The notes under the pieces were generated by a model. That model had not been told where the DNA came from, did not search any database, and saw only the letters and a program-made list of their open reading frames with translations. A DNA stretch of 64,000 nucleotides. It comes from Minisyncoccota bacterium (GTDB lineage Bacteria; Patescibacteriota; Minisyncoccia; Phycocordibacterales; JBAYLF01). Where the stretch lies: assembly GCA_041664205.1 (NCBI GenBank), contig JBAYLF010000002.1:29690-93689 (forward strand). The letters run 5' to 3'. Of the stretch, positions 25,662 to 61,125 are shown piece by piece. Position 1 is the stretch's first letter. Every line of letters begins with the position of its first letter. The position numbers and the translations under genes were made by a program.

Positions 25662-25735
25662 CTGTCATTCCCGCGCAGGCGGGAATCCAGATTAAACAGA
25701 TATGAACTAGATTCCCGCCTGCGCGGGAATGACAG
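25662..25735. repeat. Palindromic GC-rich repeat element, miniature copy A
   Basis: ctgtcattcccgcgcaggcgggaatccag, then a 16-bp spacer, then ctagattcccgcctgcgcgggaatgacag. The two halves are reverse complements, each a hairpin with an 8-bp stem. Its final ctag supplies the stop codon of the GH gene 25707..26789. Confidence 0.85.
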
Positions 25736-37310: not shown

Positions 37311-37352
37311 TAAATTAAATTAATACAACGTAACTTATTCTAGATGTCAATA

Positions 37353-37519
37353 GCTGGGGAACAGGGATTCTCTCCTTACAGGAGCTGTACACCCTTCGTA
37401 TCGTGCTCGCAAAGCTCCGCGCGATATACTCAGGGTTTTCGAATCCCTGACGGAAGCAAAATTATTTGCTTCCTTTCCCACAGCACTACGCTGCGCTTCG
37501 TGCTGGGGAACAGGGATTC
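37353..37519. repeat. 18-bp direct repeat gctggggaacagggattc (37353-37370 and 37502-37519); the second copy is the 3' end of tRNA-Gln
   Basis: Exact duplication of the tRNA-Gln T-loop 3' half plus acceptor 3' strand. The 131-bp interval contains tRNA-arm-like hairpins (cagggttttcgaatccctg; ggaagcaaaattatttgcttcc). Confidence 0.7.
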
Positions 37520-37573
37520 GAACCCCAATTAACGGCTTCAAAGGCCGCTGTCCTACCTTTAGACGATTCCCCA
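37503..37573 (-). tRNA. tRNA-Gln (anticodon UUG); CCA not encoded
   Basis: Minus-strand sequence TGGGGAATCGTCTAAAGGTAGGACAGCGGCCTTTGAAGCCGTTAATTGGGGTTCGAATCCCTGTTCCCCAG folds as a cloverleaf with U1-A72, G73 and anticodon loop CTTTGAA. It closely resembles E. coli tRNA-Gln. Confidence 0.8.
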
Positions 37574-38630: not shown

Positions 38631-39265
38631 GTTGTGTCTATTATATCAAATAATTGGATATCGTATATAAAAAAATAAACACGGGGTTTAATCCGTGTTT
38701 TTTGTTTTTGCTGGCGGAGCAGATTGATTACTCAATTGCTCCGCCAGCTTTCATTTTTCTACTAATCTGTTTCTTAGTATATGTGAACACCCCAAACTGA
38801 ATTAACGGGCACATATTTTTTAAGAAATCAGAAAGAATCGTCATTGGTACCTTTGCTTTACGAGCCCATGTTCGTCATCTTTCGATAACATTCCAGAAAA
38901 ATTGGTTAGACCTTTCCAGTATTGGGTTCTGCGTGAATGTTCCTTTCTAAGACCGTTCAGGCCTTATTCTGTGTTGCGAGTCTCTCAATTATTGTGTTTC
39001 CGGCGATTGTATTGGCGTTGGTATTGTCTAGCCCTGTAGCTCCTCCAGTTTCCCCCATGATGGGTTCGCTTTCGCATTCTGGCGCTTACGCGGGTTCTGT
39101 TAGGAAAAATCACTCCTTCTTATTGGGTCTGCTGACCCTGTTGTGTTTCGCGAAGAACAAAATTACTCTTACATAGTAGCAGATTAATTATTTTTGTCAA
39201 GCGTTTTTATGGCAAACTTCATTTTAAATGTTAAATATCATAAAATATCCTTATTTTTAGGTATA

Positions 39266-40975: not shown

Positions 40976-41370
40976 TGTCATTCCCGCCTGCCCGCCATGC
41001 AAGGCAAAGCGTTGCAGGCAGGCGAAGGCGGGAATCCAGTATAATCCTCACATGAACAAAAATTATTATGTTTATATATTAGCAAGTAAAAAGAATGGGA
41101 CTTTATATATAGGGGTTACAAATGATTTAGTACGCAGAATTTACGAACATAAAAACGGTTTAATTGAAGGATTTACTAAAAAATACAATATAAAAAATCT
41201 GGTTTATTATGAAGAAACCAATGATATAAACAGTGCCTTAAGTAGAGAAAAAAGTTTAAAAAAATGGAACAGAGAATGGAAACTAAAACTTATTGAGTTA
41301 AATAATCCGGAGTGGAATGATTTGAGTTTAGATTTATAAAACTGGATTCCCGCCTGCGCGGGAATGACAG
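40976..41370. mobile_element. Candidate full-length element: GIY-YIG nuclease gene bracketed by the same GC-rich palindromic termini as the 74-bp miniature repeats
   Basis: Left end tgtcattcccgcc...gaaggcgggaatccag (40976-41039, expanded/degenerate). The GIY-YIG ORF is at 41052-41339. Right end ctggattcccgcctgcgcgggaatgacag (41342-41370), 2 bp after the stop codon. Confidence 0.55.
41052..41339 (+). CDS. GIY-YIG nuclease family protein
   Basis: 95 aa, YYVYILASKKNGTLYIGVTNDLVRRIYEHKNG (GIY-YIG core, YhbQ-like). Confidence 0.8.
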   Translation: MNKNYYVYILASKKNGTLYIGVTNDLVRRIYEHKNGLIEGFTKKYNIKNLVYYEETNDINSALSREKSLKKWNREWKLKLIELNNPEWNDLSLDL

Positions 41371-45189: not shown

Positions 45190-45264
45190 TTGTCATTCCC
45201 GCGCAGGCGGGAATCTAGTTTCTTATTTCAACGGTCTGGATTCCCGCCTGCGCGGGAATGACAG
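45190..45264. repeat. Palindromic GC-rich repeat element, miniature copy C
   Basis: ttgtcattcccgcgcaggcgggaatctag, 17-bp spacer, ctggattcccgcctgcgcgggaatgacag. Lies 14 bp downstream of the serS stop. Confidence 0.85.
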
Positions 45265-48786: not shown

Positions 48787-50988
48787 ATGAAGTTACTTAT
48801 CGTAGAGTCTCCGGCAAAAGCAAAAACAATTTCAAAATATCTTGATGGTAAATATAAAGTTGTCGCATCGATTGGACATATTCGTGATTTACCAAAGAGC
48901 AACAAAGAAGCTATAGATATAGAAGGAGGATTTATTCCCCATTATGTTGTTCCAAAAGAAAAAGAAAAAGTTGTTGCAGAAATAACCGAACTCGCAAAAA
49001 AATCTGACGAAATTATGTTAGCGACTGACCCCGACCGTGAAGGCGAGGCTATTGCTTGGCATATCGATAGACTTATTCATGAGAGAAATTCAAAAGATAA
49101 GAAGTCTAAAAAACCATTAATAAGAAGAATTGTTTTTCATGAAATAACAAAAGAAGCCGTGCAAGAAGCTGAAAAGCATCCCCGCGGTATTGATCAAAAT
49201 CTTCGCCGTGCTCAAGAAGCAAGACGTGTGCTTGATCGTTTGGTTGGATACGATCTTTCTGGTCTTATATGGAAAAAAGTTCGTTACGGACTTTCAGCTG
49301 GACGCGTGCAGTCCCCTGCGCTTCGTATCATTATGGAACGCGAGCGAGAAATTCGCGCTTTCCAATCTGAGAAATATTGGGCACTTACTGCATCACTTGA
49401 AACAAAGAAAGATGAAAAGATTCCTACTACTTGCGACACAGAGCCTACAGACTTTAAAGAAGTAGAAAGAATTTTAAAGGCGGGTAAGGCTGGTAAATGG
49501 TCTGTCGTAGATATTTCAGAAACCGAAGTAAAAAGACAACCAAAAGCACCGTTCATTACTTCAACACTTCAACAAACAGCAAGCTCACGACTAGGATTTT
49601 CTCCATCGAAGACTATGTCCGTCGCTCAAAAGTTGTATGAAAACGGACTCATTACTTACATGAGAACGGACAGCACAAATTTAAGCGAGGTTGCACTTAA
49701 ACAAATAAATTCAATTATTGTAAAAAAATATGGCGATAGTTTCCTATCACCTAGAACTTTTGCTACAAAAAGTAAAAATGCTCAAGAGGCTCACGAAGCA
49801 ATACGCCCCAGCGATGTATCAAAAGAAAGAGCAGGTTTTAATGCAGAGCAGAAAAGCTTATATCAACTCATTTGGCAACGCACAGTAGCATCGCAAATGA
49901 CTGAAGCGAAAATACTTCGAACAAAAATATCAACAAACATAGAAGACAAATCTATACCTGATTTTTCTGCACACGGTTCAAGAACATTATTTTATGGTTG
50001 GATGTCGGCAGACCCTGAAGCGCGAGGTGATGATGTGGAACTTCCAAAAATTTCAAAAGGCGATCCTTTAAACCTTTTGGAAATCAATTCTTTAGAAAAG
50101 CAAACGGAACCGCCTCCTCGATATACAGAAGCAGGACTTGTAAAAGAACTTGAAAAAAGAGGCATCGGACGACCTTCAACTTATGCTAGTATTATAAAAA
50201 CATTAGGAGATCGAGGTTATGTAACCAAAGAAAACAAATCGCTCACACCTACAGATACGGGCGATGTTGTAAGCACATTCTTGGAAAATAATTTTACACA
50301 ATATATAAGCGATTCATTTACCGCAGAAATGGAAGATAAACTAGACGACATTGCTTCTGGAACTGGAGAATATGAAAAAACATTATCAACATTCTATAAA
50401 CCTTTCTTAAAAGAAGTGAAATTAAAATCAAAAACAGAAAAAAAGATAACAGACCTTGGCCCAGCACCAAAAGAATTTCCATGTCCTATATGCGGAGCTT
50501 CGATGGTTTTTAAATTGAGTAAAAATGGAAAATTTATGAGCTGTTCAAAATTCCCAGAATGCACAGGCGCTAGAACTGTGGAAGGAAAAGAATTGGAGGG
50601 TCCAAAAGAAACTGGCGAACTTTGTCCGGAATGTAGCGGCAAACTTTTAGAACGAGATGGAAAATTCGGAAGATTTATTGCGTGCGGAAATTACCCAAAG
50701 TGCAAATATATTAAAAAAGACGCGGCTCTAGAAATGAAAAATTCAACTGGAATAAAATGCCCTGTTTGCAAAGAAGGTGAAATGACAGAGCGACGCGGTA
50801 GATTTGGAATTTTCTATAGTTGCACCAATTATCCAAAGTGCAAATATGCAATCAAAACAAAGCCTACTGGAAATCTTTGTAAAATGTGCGGTTCGCTAAT
50901 GATGGAGGGCACAAAAACTATCCCGGAAAGATGTAGTGTTAAAGAATGTCCGAATCATAACCCTCACAAATTAAATAAGATCGAGTAA
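48787..50988 (+). CDS. topA: DNA topoisomerase I
   Basis: 733 aa with a Toprim N-terminus (LLIVESPAKAKTI), active-site Tyr region and C-terminal zinc ribbons (C..C...C..C repeated). Confidence 0.9.
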   Translation: MKLLIVESPAKAKTISKYLDGKYKVVASIGHIRDLPKSNKEAIDIEGGFIPHYVVPKEKEKVVAEITELAKKSDEIMLATDPDREGEAIAWHIDRLIHERNSKDKKSKKPLIRRIVFHEITKEAVQEAEKHPRGIDQNLRRAQEARRVLDRLVGYDLSGLIWKKVRYGLSAGRVQSPALRIIMEREREIRAFQSEKYWALTASLETKKDEKIPTTCDTEPTDFKEVERILKAGKAGKWSVVDISETEVKRQPKAPFITSTLQQTASSRLGFSPSKTMSVAQKLYENGLITYMRTDSTNLSEVALKQINSIIVKKYGDSFLSPRTFATKSKNAQEAHEAIRPSDVSKERAGFNAEQKSLYQLIWQRTVASQMTEAKILRTKISTNIEDKSIPDFSAHGSRTLFYGWMSADPEARGDDVELPKISKGDPLNLLEINSLEKQTEPPPRYTEAGLVKELEKRGIGRPSTYASIIKTLGDRGYVTKENKSLTPTDTGDVVSTFLENNFTQYISDSFTAEMEDKLDDIASGTGEYEKTLSTFYKPFLKEVKLKSKTEKKITDLGPAPKEFPCPICGASMVFKLSKNGKFMSCSKFPECTGARTVEGKELEGPKETGELCPECSGKLLERDGKFGRFIACGNYPKCKYIKKDAALEMKNSTGIKCPVCKEGEMTERRGRFGIFYSCTNYPKCKYAIKTKPTGNLCKMCGSLMMEGTKTIPERCSVKECPNHNPHKLNKIE

Positions 50989-50991
50989 TCT

Positions 50992-51066
50992 CTGTCATTC
51001 CCGCGAAGGCGGGAATCCAGACAGTGTAGGTAAAAACCTAGATTCCCGCCTTCGCGGGAATGACAA
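50992..51066. repeat. Palindromic GC-rich repeat element, miniature copy D
   Basis: ctgtcattcccgcgaaggcgggaatccag, 17-bp spacer, ctagattcccgccttcgcgggaatgacaa. The loop variant gaag/cttc changes compensatorily in both halves. Lies 3 bp after the topA stop. Confidence 0.85.
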
Positions 51067-51079
51067 TGTTGGAGTTAAA

Positions 51080-51124
51080 AATAAATAAAAAAAGCGCTCA
51101 AGTTCTAGAACTTGAGCGCTTTGG
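51080..51124. terminator. Bidirectional rho-independent terminator
   Basis: Perfect palindrome aagcgctcaagtt-ctag-aacttgagcgctt, flanked by an A-run and a T-run. Confidence 0.6.
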
Positions 51125-51144
51125 TTATGTGACTTGCTTGGTAT

Positions 51145-51336
51145 TTACCTTCCTAAGTAATGACTTGGGTTCAGAGGCCGATCGGACTCTTCCTGCTTGC
51201 GAATGGCCTGCCATGCATTACCGGTGGTAACAACGCGGCGGTCCAATCCTCCAGTGACCAATTCTCCACAACGAACGCCGGGAGTTAGTGCACCTGTATT
51301 TGCTTTTGCGCTTGTGTTTACTTTCGTTTTTGTCAT
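51145..51336 (-). CDS. Hypothetical small protein (63 aa) in an unusually GC-rich (about 50 %) segment
   Basis: ATG preceded by SD ggagaa. Ends at the bidirectional terminator. Codon usage and GC are atypical for the window. No recognisable domain. Confidence 0.35.
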   Translation of the reverse strand: MTKTKVNTSAKANTGALTPGVRCGELVTGGLDRRVVTTGNAWQAIRKQEESDRPLNPSHYLGR

Positions 51337-51445
51337 ACGGTATTCTCCAAATTCGACAAGTCACTTTACCATAAAGAGCTTGTCTGCAAAAAGCTTATCA
51401 TAGATAAGCTTTATTGTCAATAGTAAATTAGCACAAAATTAGAGT

Positions 51446-52447
51446 TTAAATACTGAAGTTTTTTATTGAGTAGAGATCTCCATCATCTTCCTCCCTAGTC
51501 TCTTCTTGGACAGTAGCTTCACTTACAAGTGCATCAATATCATCCGGCTTGCTTACATCATTGATAGTGTTTTCAGGATTATTAACATATTTATTCATCA
51601 TTTCTGTTATCGGCTTTTGCTGATTTGATTTTACTAGTTCAACAATATTTCTTAGATCATCAGCGCTGAAAAAATCAATAACAACTCTTCCGCCATTTTG
51701 ACGCTTTTCAATCTGCACGCGTGTGCCTAGAGATTCCGTGAGTTTTCCTTCCATTTCCATAATGTCAGGATCAAACATTCTTTCTTTCTTTCGTGCGCGT
51801 TCAAAAGCAATTTTTCTCGCGATTAATTCTGCTTCGCGAACTGTCATCCTTTTAAAAATAATCTCCTTGAAAAGCACAGCTTGCTCCTCAGGACGATCAA
51901 CAAGCATAAGTAGTGGACGTGTATGACCTTCAGAAATTTTTCCAGCCATAAGTGCGTCCTGCATTTCTTGTGAAAGAGCTAGAAGTCTTATTGTGTTAGT
52001 GACATATTCCCTACTCTTACCAACTTTAGTTGCGATCTGTGCGTGTTTGAAATTAAATTCTTTTGAAAGTCTATCGAAAGCTCTTGCGCGATCTATCGCG
52101 TTCAAATCTTCTCTTTGTAAATTTTCAATAATGGCAAGTTCTAGCTTTACCATATCATTTTCATCATCATTTCTTATGAGAGCAGGAACTTGTTCTAGAT
52201 TTGCCATTTTTGAAGCGCGAAGTCTTCGTTCACCTGCGATAAGTTCATACTCAACAACGAGACCACCATCTTCTTTAAAAATTTCTTTTCGCGTAACAAC
52301 TAGCGGCTGCAACACTCCATACATGCGTATAGAATCAGACAGATCTTTTAGTCTGGCTTCATCAAACTCTTTGCGAGGTTGGAAAGGATTTGGCTTTATC
52401 TTATCCACCTCTATCCAAAATATTGAATCGTTATAATATTGTGACAT
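51446..52447 (-). CDS. parB: ParB/Spo0J family partition protein
   Basis: 333 aa. ParB N-terminal box (IEVDKIKPNPFQPRKEFDE...VLQPLVV...ELIAGERRLRAS), HTH, and an acidic C-terminus. Confidence 0.8.
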   Translation of the reverse strand: MSQYYNDSIFWIEVDKIKPNPFQPRKEFDEARLKDLSDSIRMYGVLQPLVVTRKEIFKEDGGLVVEYELIAGERRLRASKMANLEQVPALIRNDDENDMVKLELAIIENLQREDLNAIDRARAFDRLSKEFNFKHAQIATKVGKSREYVTNTIRLLALSQEMQDALMAGKISEGHTRPLLMLVDRPEEQAVLFKEIIFKRMTVREAELIARKIAFERARKKERMFDPDIMEMEGKLTESLGTRVQIEKRQNGGRVVIDFFSADDLRNIVELVKSNQQKPITEMMNKYVNNPENTINDVSKPDDIDALVSEATVQEETREEDDGDLYSIKNFSI

Positions 52448-52550
52448 AGCTTATTTCCTTAATTTAACTCTATTTTATCATAAAGTTAAATGTTAAAGAA
52501 ATTGATTTATGTGAAAAATTTGTTAGTATTTTTGACATGACTCGGCACAT

Positions 52551-52634
52551 GCCGCGGTGGCGGAATTGGTAGACGCAATAGACTCAAAATCTATCGATCG
52601 CAAGGTCATGAGAGTTCGATTCTCTCCCGCGGCA
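52551..52634 (+). tRNA. tRNA-Leu (anticodon CAA), type II with long variable arm; CCA not encoded
   Basis: Acceptor GCCGCGG/CCGCGGC, D-arm GGCGGAATTGGTAGACGC, anticodon loop CTCAAAA, T-arm GAGAGTTCGATTCTCTC, discriminator A. Confidence 0.8.
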
Positions 52635-52681
52635 CATTATAAAAAAACCTGCAATAAGCAGGTTTTTTTATAATGTGCCGC
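52629..52681 (+). terminator. 53-bp perfect palindrome (24-bp arms) overlapping the tRNA-Leu 3' end; long-stem terminator
   Basis: gcggcacattataaaaaaacctgc-aataa-gcaggtttttttataatgtgccgc. Confidence 0.6.
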
Positions 52682-59441: not shown

Positions 59442-60284
59442 CTAATTGCTTGTCTTTTTGGATTGTTCCGCTACTGGTTTGACCGTAGGAATATTTAAAG
59501 GAGTGAAAATATTTTTATTTTCGTATTTTGTTAAGTGCATTCCTAGCACATTACCTGATATGTCTACGATTGGACTTCCTGAAACAATATCGTTTGAAGA
59601 AATTTGCGCTTCAATAGCACCTATTTCAATCTTTGGTGGAGTTGATGTGCTTGTTTCAGTATTTGATTGAGACTCTTTTTTTATCAAGCTTGCAACTGAA
59701 CCTATCGATACTGCATCTCTATTTGAACCACCTAACCCTATCAATGTTTGTCCGAGTTTTATTTTATCTACACTCTCCGTTCCAATACTATTAAAAATAG
59801 TCTTATCATCTCCTGCCTTCTCTGCTCTGAATAATCTAAAATCAGAGTTTGAGTTTTCAAATTTCAATGAATATTTACTACCATCTGAAAATACTGCTGT
59901 ATAATTTCCATCTTCAAATGTTGAGTATTTATCAACAACGATTAATCCATCACTTGATGTTACAAGACCTAAAGCAACAAATGAACTGCTTTTATCTTCA
60001 TTAACCTGCGTCAATCTAACAATTGATTTTAAATTTTTATCTATTGCGGTGGCTATGAGCTCTTCGCTACTTTTTTGAGGTGTTTCGCTTTGAATTTTTA
60101 TTATTTCTTTTGCTCCTGGAATAACCTTTTCAATAGTTCTTTCTACAACCTGATTTATAATTTGCGGAACTTGCAGTGGCACTTCCTGTAAAAGAGAAAC
60201 TGTAATAATACCTGTGGCAATCGATGTCACAAAGCTTATCATCACGCACAAAAGAATTAATTGTTGTTTGTTTAGATCTTCCAT
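59442..60284 (-). CDS. Membrane-anchored trypsin-like (S1) peptidase-domain protein, possibly catalytically degenerate
   Basis: 280 aa. N-terminal TM, and a chymotrypsin-fold-like C-terminal half (IVSGSPIVDISGNVLGMH) in which the canonical GNSGGP serine motif is altered. Confidence 0.45.
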   Translation of the reverse strand: MEDLNKQQLILLCVMISFVTSIATGIITVSLLQEVPLQVPQIINQVVERTIEKVIPGAKEIIKIQSETPQKSSEELIATAIDKNLKSIVRLTQVNEDKSSSFVALGLVTSSDGLIVVDKYSTFEDGNYTAVFSDGSKYSLKFENSNSDFRLFRAEKAGDDKTIFNSIGTESVDKIKLGQTLIGLGGSNRDAVSIGSVASLIKKESQSNTETSTSTPPKIEIGAIEAQISSNDIVSGSPIVDISGNVLGMHLTKYENKNIFTPLNIPTVKPVAEQSKKTSN

Positions 60285-60483
60285 AAATATTGTGAGACTT
60301 GTCTATCAATAGGATTTCTTGGAGAAATTTAATAGATTTCGAGCGAAGCGCGGTAAAAAATTTTGAAGAATACCTTTTTGGTATTTTGAAAAATTTTTAA
60401 CAAGCTGCAGCCGAAATCCGTTAAATTTATACAGAAAGGTTGTTGATAGACAAGTCTATTCTAACATTTTGAGATATCGACGC

Positions 60484-60517
60484 AAGAAAAATCACCACGA
60501 CCGTAGGTCGTGGTGAT
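60484..60517 (-). terminator. Rho-independent terminator
   Basis: atcaccacgacc-gtag-ggtcgtggtgat, with a minus-strand T-run. Confidence 0.5.
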
Positions 60518-60547
60518 ACATCAAAATTGAGTAAATTTCTGTTTTGA

Positions 60548-60643
60548 TCATAGAAACTTTTTTTTATTAGGTTTCTTATCAAAAGCACAGAGAGTCAATA
60601 TGATCAACGATTGATAAATAAAAAATCCAATCAATACTTCCAT
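60548..60643 (-). CDS. Putative 31-aa hydrophobic peptide
   Basis: MEVLIGFFIYQSLIILTLCAFDKKPNKKKFL. Strong SD ggaggaataat. The terminator follows 20 bp downstream. Below the ORF-track size cutoff. Confidence 0.3.
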   Translation of the reverse strand: MEVLIGFFIYQSLIILTLCAFDKKPNKKKFL

Positions 60644-61052
60644 ATTATTCCTCCTTTTTTTAAAAAAGCACTATACTTTTTATCTACTTAGAATGATATC
60701 ATATTTTTATTTAAATGTCAATAATAATCTTTCTACCTAGGTGAAAAAGCAATCAGTGTAAAAAAGATAAAAACTATAGAAATACCGACAATTCCAAAAA
60801 TCTGAAGATAGAGACCTGCAAGCCAGGTAAAACCAGCTTTATTGGCTAGAGCTTTATTTTCAGGATTCTTTTTCAACTCCTCATAAAGAACTTTTTCTTT
60901 CTTCCATAAAAAATTCCAGCAAAGAAAAATATATTAGAAATAATTAAAATAATACATAACTGCATTTCATACTGAATAATTATGTTATACATATTTAATT
61001 CTCCTTCTGAATTATAAGGTATCGTTCTTGCAGTATTTCGTCAAATTCCATT

Positions 61053-61125
61053 CTGTCATTCCCGCGAAGGCGGGAATCCAGATTAAACAGAGATAAACTA
61101 GATTCCCGCCTTCGCGGGAATGACA
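61053..61125. repeat. Palindromic GC-rich repeat element, miniature copy E
   Basis: ctgtcattcccgcgaaggcgggaatccag, spacer attaaacagagataaa (near-identical to the copy A spacer), ctagattcccgccttcgcgggaatgacaa. Lies 11 bp beyond the cysteine desulfurase stop. Confidence 0.85.

Follow-up and report, generated by a model that had tools for sequence, protein, structure and literature searches.

What occupies the short interval behind parB in this genome, a small gene, a non-coding RNA or a functionless relic, is the question raised by a 63-codon open reading frame (ORF) of aberrant composition. The sequence belongs to a 218-kb contig (ena:ERZ27249449:k141_993241) from the metagenome-assembled genome of a Candidatus Paceibacterota (Patescibacteria/CPR) bacterium, and the window, by which we mean the whole stretch of DNA that was analysed, spans 64 kb (64,000 nucleotides) with a GC content of 34%. 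The ORF lies in the 457-bp gap between the convergent genes topA and parB. An earlier note, made from the letters alone, had described at this site a GC-rich small gene with an SD, an operator-like palindrome and a bidirectional terminator, downstream of a parB with no adjacent parA. All of the features that it listed are present where it placed them, and three points required amendment: the direction of the terminator, the weight given to the SD, and the meaning of the missing parA. The elements of the locus, in order of coordinate, are the following.

48787-50988, plus strand: topA, convergent with parB; the two genes bound the variable slot.
51084-51122, minus strand: intrinsic terminator with a 14-bp stem, a 4-nt loop and UUUUUUU, starting 22 nt past the ORF stop.
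51122-51136 with 51357-51371: 15-nt inverted repeat, complementary at 13 of 15 positions, which would pair the 5′ UTR with the 3′ UTR.
51145-51336, minus strand: the 63-codon ORF, ATG to TAA, from the ORF list and its translation.
51343-51348, minus strand: SD-like GGAGAA, with GGAG at 51348-51345, 8 nt ahead of the ATG.
51363-51371, minus strand: second, weaker extended −10-like motif, TGgTAAAGT, with a −35-like TTTGCA at 51385-51390; a consensus match only.
51390-51412, either strand: perfect palindrome with 10-bp arms and a 3-nt loop, AAAGCTTATC-ATA-GATAAGCTTT.
51392-51400, minus strand: extended −10 of the predicted promoter P1, TGaTAAGCT, behind a 17-nt spacer.
51415-51420, minus strand: −35 hexamer of P1, TTGACA, a perfect consensus.
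51446-52447, minus strand: parB, with complete ParB_N, HTH_ParB and ParB_C domains.

The ORF was found on the minus strand with the sequence previously given for it, and the description of roughly 50% GC was borne out. Its GC fraction is 0.50 against 0.34 for the 64-kb window, and its GC3 is 0.43 against 0.24 ± 0.04 in the long ORFs of the window. Only two stretches in the 64 kb reach 50% GC or more over 192 nt, and the ORF is one of them. Within the ORF, the N-terminal third is more AT-rich than the remainder (GC 0.43 versus 0.55). The product would be a basic peptide (net charge +5) rich in Thr, Gly and Arg, and no hydrophobic segment is apparent from its sequence. A single-sequence AF2 model, built with no alignment, was coil for the most part at a pLDDT of 55; a model of this quality, too low for a fold search, is uninformative, but not supportive. 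The tryptic peptides expected from the sequence are ANTGALTPGVR, CGELVTGGLDR, VVTTGNAWQAIR and PLNPSHYLGR. The ORF product is present in JGI/IMG and ENA and missing from the NCBI protein set, although NCBI does include ParB from this contig, which implies that one or more annotation pipelines left the ORF uncalled.

Codon statistics rank the ORF frame first of six, yet near the lower limit of real genes. Scored with the codon table of the window, the ORF frame attains +0.107 bits per codon, and the other five frames range from −0.40 to −0.77. None of the off-frame windows of real genes attains this score, which ranks among the bottom 3% of true in-frame windows, and over its final third the ORF has a negative score. 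Of 87 shadow ORFs, 15% do equally well, as do 4-6% of random sequences that lack stops and share the ORF's composition (p ~0.04-0.06). The ORF, complete from ATG to TAA, is longer than expected by chance (P = 0.026): when random 263-nt sequences were generated with the same dinucleotide content, 2.6% of them contained a sense ORF that began with ATG and ran for 60 codons or more. Adding a correctly spaced SD to the same test lowered this fraction to 0.2%.

The SD itself calls for caution. The earlier note regarded it as a good one (ggagaa); the motif is indeed there, but its weight as evidence is low. An SD-like 4-mer (GGAG, GAGG or AGGA) occurs at positions −17 to −5 of only 5 of the 61 window genes, which is the background rate, and the upstream regions of these 61 genes show no SD enrichment and are merely AT-rich. 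Because SD motifs stand at background level among the genes of the window, the SD ahead of the ORF says little about translation; as a sequence feature it would argue for foreign origin rather than for translation, and it may be non-functional in a genome that makes no use of SDs. More generally, SD-based arguments for the small ORFs of a genome with no SD signal are best avoided.

Signals for transcription frame the ORF on both sides. P1 is a predicted promoter of the sigma-70 type by virtue of hexamers placed within the usual 16-18 nt of each other and of a motif enriched over chance: the full form, TTGACA-N13-15-TGnTAnnnT, occurs four times in the 64-kb window against 0.21 expected. All four full-consensus promoters lie on the gene-rich minus strand, with P1 directly upstream of the ORF. 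A −10 element of the TGnTAnnnT type is also found ahead of parB, tRNA-Leu and tRNA-Trp, and tRNA-Tyr carries the close variant TGcTATAAA. From the position of P1 we infer a transcription start near 51385. The weaker −10-like motif at 51363-51371 is a possible alternative promoter, from which the transcript would have a UTR of ~20 nt.

On the other side of the ORF, a hairpin occupies 51093-51120 and forms a perfect palindrome of 28 nt. Read from 51122 to 51091 it comprises 14 pairs, six of them GC, followed by U7, with a ΔG of −20.9 kcal/mol and a z-score of −7.6, and among intrinsic (Rho-independent) terminators this combination is a textbook case. Its 22-nt distance from the stop codon falls within the 8-37 nt seen for other window genes. 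The earlier note had called this terminator a bidirectional perfect palindrome. The palindrome stands, but the bidirectionality does not: a terminator scan flags the minus strand only, and the plus strand after the stem reads UUUGGUUAUG. As the U7 tail is confined to the minus strand, the terminator serves the direction of parB and the ORF. The window contains 21 perfect hairpins whose arms reach 10 bp or more, where ~0.8 would be expected, and most of them stand 8-37 nt after stop codons with A/T-run flanks, which marks them as terminators. Given a consensus promoter and a strong, oriented terminator, the interval from ~51385 to 51088 is very probably a real transcription unit of ~300 nt.

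The palindrome at 51390-51412 admits two roles. The earlier note had given it 9-bp arms at 51391-51411; it is perfect, as claimed, and its arms actually extend to 10 bp. As RNA, it would form a hairpin 34 nt past the parB stop (ΔG −12.4 kcal/mol, z −4.5) followed by UUUUUGC, with a stability comparable to that of other terminators of the window (−12.1 and −13.4 kcal/mol). As DNA, it covers the spacer and −10 of P1. With intrinsic terminators it shares its position 34 nt after a stop codon, its A...T flanks and its stability of −12.4 kcal/mol; unlike them, it has a short U-run (5 U, 3 of them within the stem), and its DNA coincides with a promoter spacer and −10, which is atypical. With this ΔG and a U5 tail it matches an intrinsic terminator only in part, and we regard the element as the probable intrinsic terminator of parB.

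Since the palindrome overlaps the P1 spacer and −10, it may also serve as a putative protein-binding site or operator. The former label of "operator-like" fits its position in this respect, although the same hairpin is terminator-like in both place and shape. LexA-, TetR- or Cro-type operators over sigma-70 promoters likewise present a perfect inverted repeat centred between −35 and −10. In contrast to those systems, the palindrome is a single copy in the window and unconserved, no cognate regulator was found for it, and no DNA-binding domain was detected in the ORF product. We found no second copy in the 64 kb, and a search behind parB in the relatives described below revealed no motif in common, the hairpins there being ordinary A-stem-T terminators of unrelated sequence.

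Homology searches with the ORF, which covered 15 billion proteins in all, were largely empty. A word-indexed search of 5.8 billion clusters returned only the ORF itself. Exhaustive phmmer analysis of 1.84 billion representatives returned the ORF and one match to an insect chitin-binding mucin; this CBM14 repeat protein (P0122) was rejected as spurious, its score being the sum of five weak 28-residue matches with no cysteine conserved. Comparison with Pfam, PHROGs, PADLOC and PDB assigned no family, and NCBIfam gave one non-significant match (E = 0.096, 12 bits versus a cutoff of 140). The BLASTP/HMM check proposed in the earlier note therefore leaves the ORF as its own sole genuine match and yields no families. 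For a 63-aa query and libraries this large, relatives below roughly 45% identity are undetectable, a blind spot that is partly offset by a far more permissive local search in the loci of relatives. These empty searches weigh against a protein-coding reading, since they offer no sign of conservation or purifying selection. Metagenome and viral contigs scanned with six back-translated peptides contained no confirmed relative. Two other candidates were rejected: a gene relic in alternative frames, as Pfam searches of five overlapping ORFs were empty, and a phage or plasmid origin, as blastn in distant mode found no match in phage and plasmid DNA.

For a comparison across the clade, we examined 80 species-representative parB loci whose ParB proteins are 55-68% identical to that of the window, with up to 4 kb of flank per side; as the nearest ParB relatives are only 68% identical, there is no close sister genome for comparison. 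In 64 of the 80 relatives topA is convergent to parB, and the stop-to-stop gap between the two genes ranges from −4 bp to 3665 bp among these 64. In about 40 of them the interval is occupied by a ~500-aa gene that lies on the same strand as topA and encodes RelA/SpoT (Pfam HD_4, RelA_SpoT and TGS), and the remaining gaps contain unrelated genes or nearly nothing. No rel gene is present in the 64-kb window, and its parB–topA gap contains no rel relic.

Nothing above noise emerged when the ORF and its DNA region were searched against the 80 parB loci by tblastn and blastn, and the neighbourhood genes of the relatives bear no resemblance to any frame of the window gap. Some relatives carry small ORFs after parB, which are unrelated to the ORF and, with the exception of one pair, to each other; GC-rich patches in two relatives' gaps (L032 and L052) were considered as counterparts and proved unrelated to the ORF region. 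The lack of an ORF counterpart beside parB, together with the changing content of the gap, identifies the ORF as the occupant of a hypervariable slot, not as a companion of ParB. An Rfam scan of 16 relatives' loci detected only tRNAs, all outside the gap, and an 81-84-nt tRNA is divergent from parB in 14 of these 16.

The order tRNA (Leu here), parB, variable slot and topA, which extends over 48787-52635 in the window, is conserved across Paceibacterota. As rel is its usual occupant, the parB–topA slot offers a convenient marker of genes gained and lost.

The topA side of the slot also carries a repeat. A GC-rich nested-palindrome element of the form TGTCATTCCCGCG[A/C]AGGCGGGAATC, ~17-25 variable nt, GATTCCCGCCT[T/G]CGCGGGAATGACA is dispersed in the 64 kb as four inverted pairs and one solo unit, versus 0 expected. 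The copies are these.

25667-25730: nested-palindrome element.
41346-41365: nested-palindrome element.
45195-45259: nested-palindrome element.
50993-51065: nested-palindrome element, a pair that directly follows the topA stop, beside the ORF region.
61058-61121: nested-palindrome element.

The element has a sub-threshold Rfam match to the Wolbachia WsnRNA46 (42.8 bits versus a cutoff of 65.3), and it was sought in the loci of the 80 relatives and found absent.

For the ORF we favor, at a probability of roughly 0.55, a self-contained orphan cassette in the variable parB–topA slot that is expressed, encodes a small protein and is foreign or very recent in origin. The near-consensus promoter of the sigma-70 type (TTGACA, 17-nt spacer, TGaTAAGCT; 51420-51392) would direct transcription from near 51385, and the resulting monocistronic RNA of ~300 nt would carry GGAG, 8 nt and then the ATG. 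The protein translated from it would have 63 residues, be basic (+5) and rich in Thr, Gly and Arg, and probably be disordered over most of its length, and the transcript would stop at the strong hairpin and U7, 22 nt beyond the stop codon. The palindrome at 51390-51412 would act firstly as the terminator of parB and perhaps also as a control site for the cassette promoter. Three features point to a foreign or very recent origin: the elevated GC3, an SD in a genome whose genes make no use of them, and the lack of any relative. The recently acquired small gene of the earlier note is consistent with this picture with regard to GC3, the missing homologues, the hypervariable slot and the dedicated promoter and terminator, though no donor was found. 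As for the product, our best guess would be a small protein with an accessory or nucleic-acid-binding role. Nothing here suggests a new mechanism.

Such a cassette would have company. The orphan small genes of Patescibacteria/CPR variable regions resemble the ORF in being short, devoid of homologues and atypical in composition, in a slot that differs between genomes; relative to these, the ORF is unusually rich in signals, as its promoter is one of just four in 64 kb with the full consensus and it has an oriented terminator of its own. If real, the ORF would encode a further lineage-specific small protein of an uncultured Patescibacteria bacterium with a reduced genome, and its promoter is predicted to be among the strongest of its neighbourhood. 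A high share of unknown genes has been reported for Patescibacteria, and the novel families highlighted there are enriched in transmembrane and signal-peptide proteins (PMC10849945). In contrast to those families, the ORF has no hydrophobic segment and is seen in one genome only.

A competing explanation, which we consider unlikely, is that the unit encodes a non-coding small RNA of ~300 nt, either independent or derived from the 3′ UTR of parB, in which the ORF is incidental. A short unit enclosed by a promoter and a terminator, with no gene behind it, would suit such an RNA, as would a product with neither homologue nor predicted fold that is absent from the NCBI protein set. Furthermore, in AT-rich genomes a GC-rich island is frequently an RNA gene, and the other such island of the window, at 37325-37505, is structured (z −4.8 on both strands), so that structured RNA in this genome is readily detected by a folding test. 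By the same test, the ORF region folds like its dinucleotide shuffles (z −0.09 and −0.16 for the two strands) unless the closing pair is included. That pair, the 13/15 complementarity of 51122-51136 with 51357-51371, joins the 5′ and 3′ ends and brings the fold to z −1.59; its significance is doubtful, and another inverted pair of similar strength in the same 600 nt resembles chance.

Database evidence also weighs against a small RNA. An Rfam 15 scan of the window at gathering thresholds detected only 4 tRNAs, a scan of 50950-51500 at E ≤ 10 placed nothing on the ORF or elsewhere in 51145-51390, and ARAGORN found no tmRNA. The position shows no conservation in the 80 relatives. An ATG-started ORF over 64% of the transcript is improbable by chance, at the 2.6% obtained above, and its frame is coding-like in composition. 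Bacterial sRNAs (Rfam sRNA families, 6S RNA) are comparable in their length of ~300 nt, bracketing signals, intergenic position and GC content above the genome mean; they differ from this unit, which has no Rfam match, no excess structure and a long ATG-started ORF. The earlier note had offered a GC-rich ncRNA with a chance ORF as its second possibility, to be examined with Rfam. No family was found on the ORF, and with folding z-scores of −0.1 to −1.6 and a chance ORF at 2.6% this possibility is unsupported. The same note would have given up the gene if homologues were absent and relatives showed a conserved RNA structure here: homologues are indeed absent, but nothing is conserved at this position in the relatives.

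Two mobile or repeated elements were also considered for the region and rejected. A MITE with the 15-nt repeat as its inverted ends is contradicted by ends that are unique in the window, a core with no other copy and no match among metagenome contigs. An element common to the ORF region and the other GC-rich island was discarded, as the two show no similarity.

We also think it improbable that the region is a functionless relic, a foreign fragment left behind by remodelling of the RelA/SpoT slot, whose signals and ORF are leftovers or products of chance that AT-biased mutation is eroding. In favor of this reading, the slot has changed its content time and again within the clade, its RelA/SpoT gene is gone here, and a dispersed palindromic repeat element directly adjoins the region. 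The atypical composition, the status of the ORF as a singleton in all databases and an N-terminal third that is already AT-richer (GC 0.43 versus 0.55) would likewise fit a fragment in decay. A relic would, however, hardly be expected to retain a consensus promoter, an ATG, an open frame, a stop and an oriented terminator, all intact and correctly spaced. Nor is there any similarity to RelA/SpoT or to the neighbouring genes of the relatives: tblastn and blastx searches for a relic of either matched only copies of the palindromic repeat. Moreover, the reduced genomes of Patescibacteria usually shed useless DNA fast, which is general knowledge of the group.

More ambitious proposals fare worse. 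We give only a slim chance to a new small basic DNA-binding protein that would repress its own synthesis via the palindrome, replace Rel in the slot and influence chromosome segregation or topology, or else to a new, unstructured regulatory RNA produced by this unit. The observation in the earlier note that parB has no adjacent parA was confirmed, and parA is likewise missing from the parB flanks of all 80 relatives (0/80, up to 4 kb per side). With no parA in the window or in these flanks, the orphan parB is a trait of the clade and not specific to the locus. Canonical parS is represented in the window by one 3-mismatch match only, consistent with chance, and a scan of 81 sequences (the 80 loci and the window, 700 kb) yielded one sequence with a match at ≤2 mismatches. 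The palindrome at 51390-51412 (AAAGCTTATCATAGATAAGCTTT) was rejected as a parS, having no similarity to the canonical 16-bp TGTTNCACGTGAAACA.

The earlier note had raised a ParB-associated factor or small regulatory protein and proposed to ask whether homologues of the ORF always adjoin parB; none was found beside parB in the 80 relatives, which does not support this suggestion. That the ORF encodes a ParB partner or small regulator, with the palindrome as its operator or as a lineage-specific parS, draws on an ORF directly after parB on the same strand, on a palindrome that overlaps P1 and on a clade with neither an adjacent parA nor a canonical parS near parB, but it is essentially refuted by the lack of co-occurrence with parB in the relatives, whose small post-parB ORFs are unrelated to the ORF, and it fits poorly with a palindrome that occurs once in the window, does not recur as a motif behind parB in the relatives and is unlike parS.

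Three further regions of the window contain features that merit mention. The GC-rich island at 37325-37505 adjoins tRNA-Gln (37502-37573, minus strand) and terminates with a second 18-nt copy of the 3′ end of that tRNA (GCTGGGGAACAGGGATTC, found both at 37344 and at 37502). It has no Rfam or ARAGORN match, and it may be a structured RNA of tRNA origin or what an integration at the tRNA has left behind. On the minus strand at 38670-39200, a full-consensus promoter (TTGACA...TGcTACTAT, from 39200) opens a stretch of ~490 nt that contains no ORF of at least 45 aa and closes with two hairpins and, after them, a U-run. This stretch has a fold z-score of −3.6 and no Rfam match at E ≤ 1, and its sequence makes it a candidate large non-coding RNA. 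Finally, at 60285-60721 on the minus strand, a full-consensus promoter lies ~400 nt upstream of the gene at 59442-60284; between the two are tiny ORFs only and a perfect hairpin at 60491-60517, and the interval may serve as a long leader or encode a small RNA.
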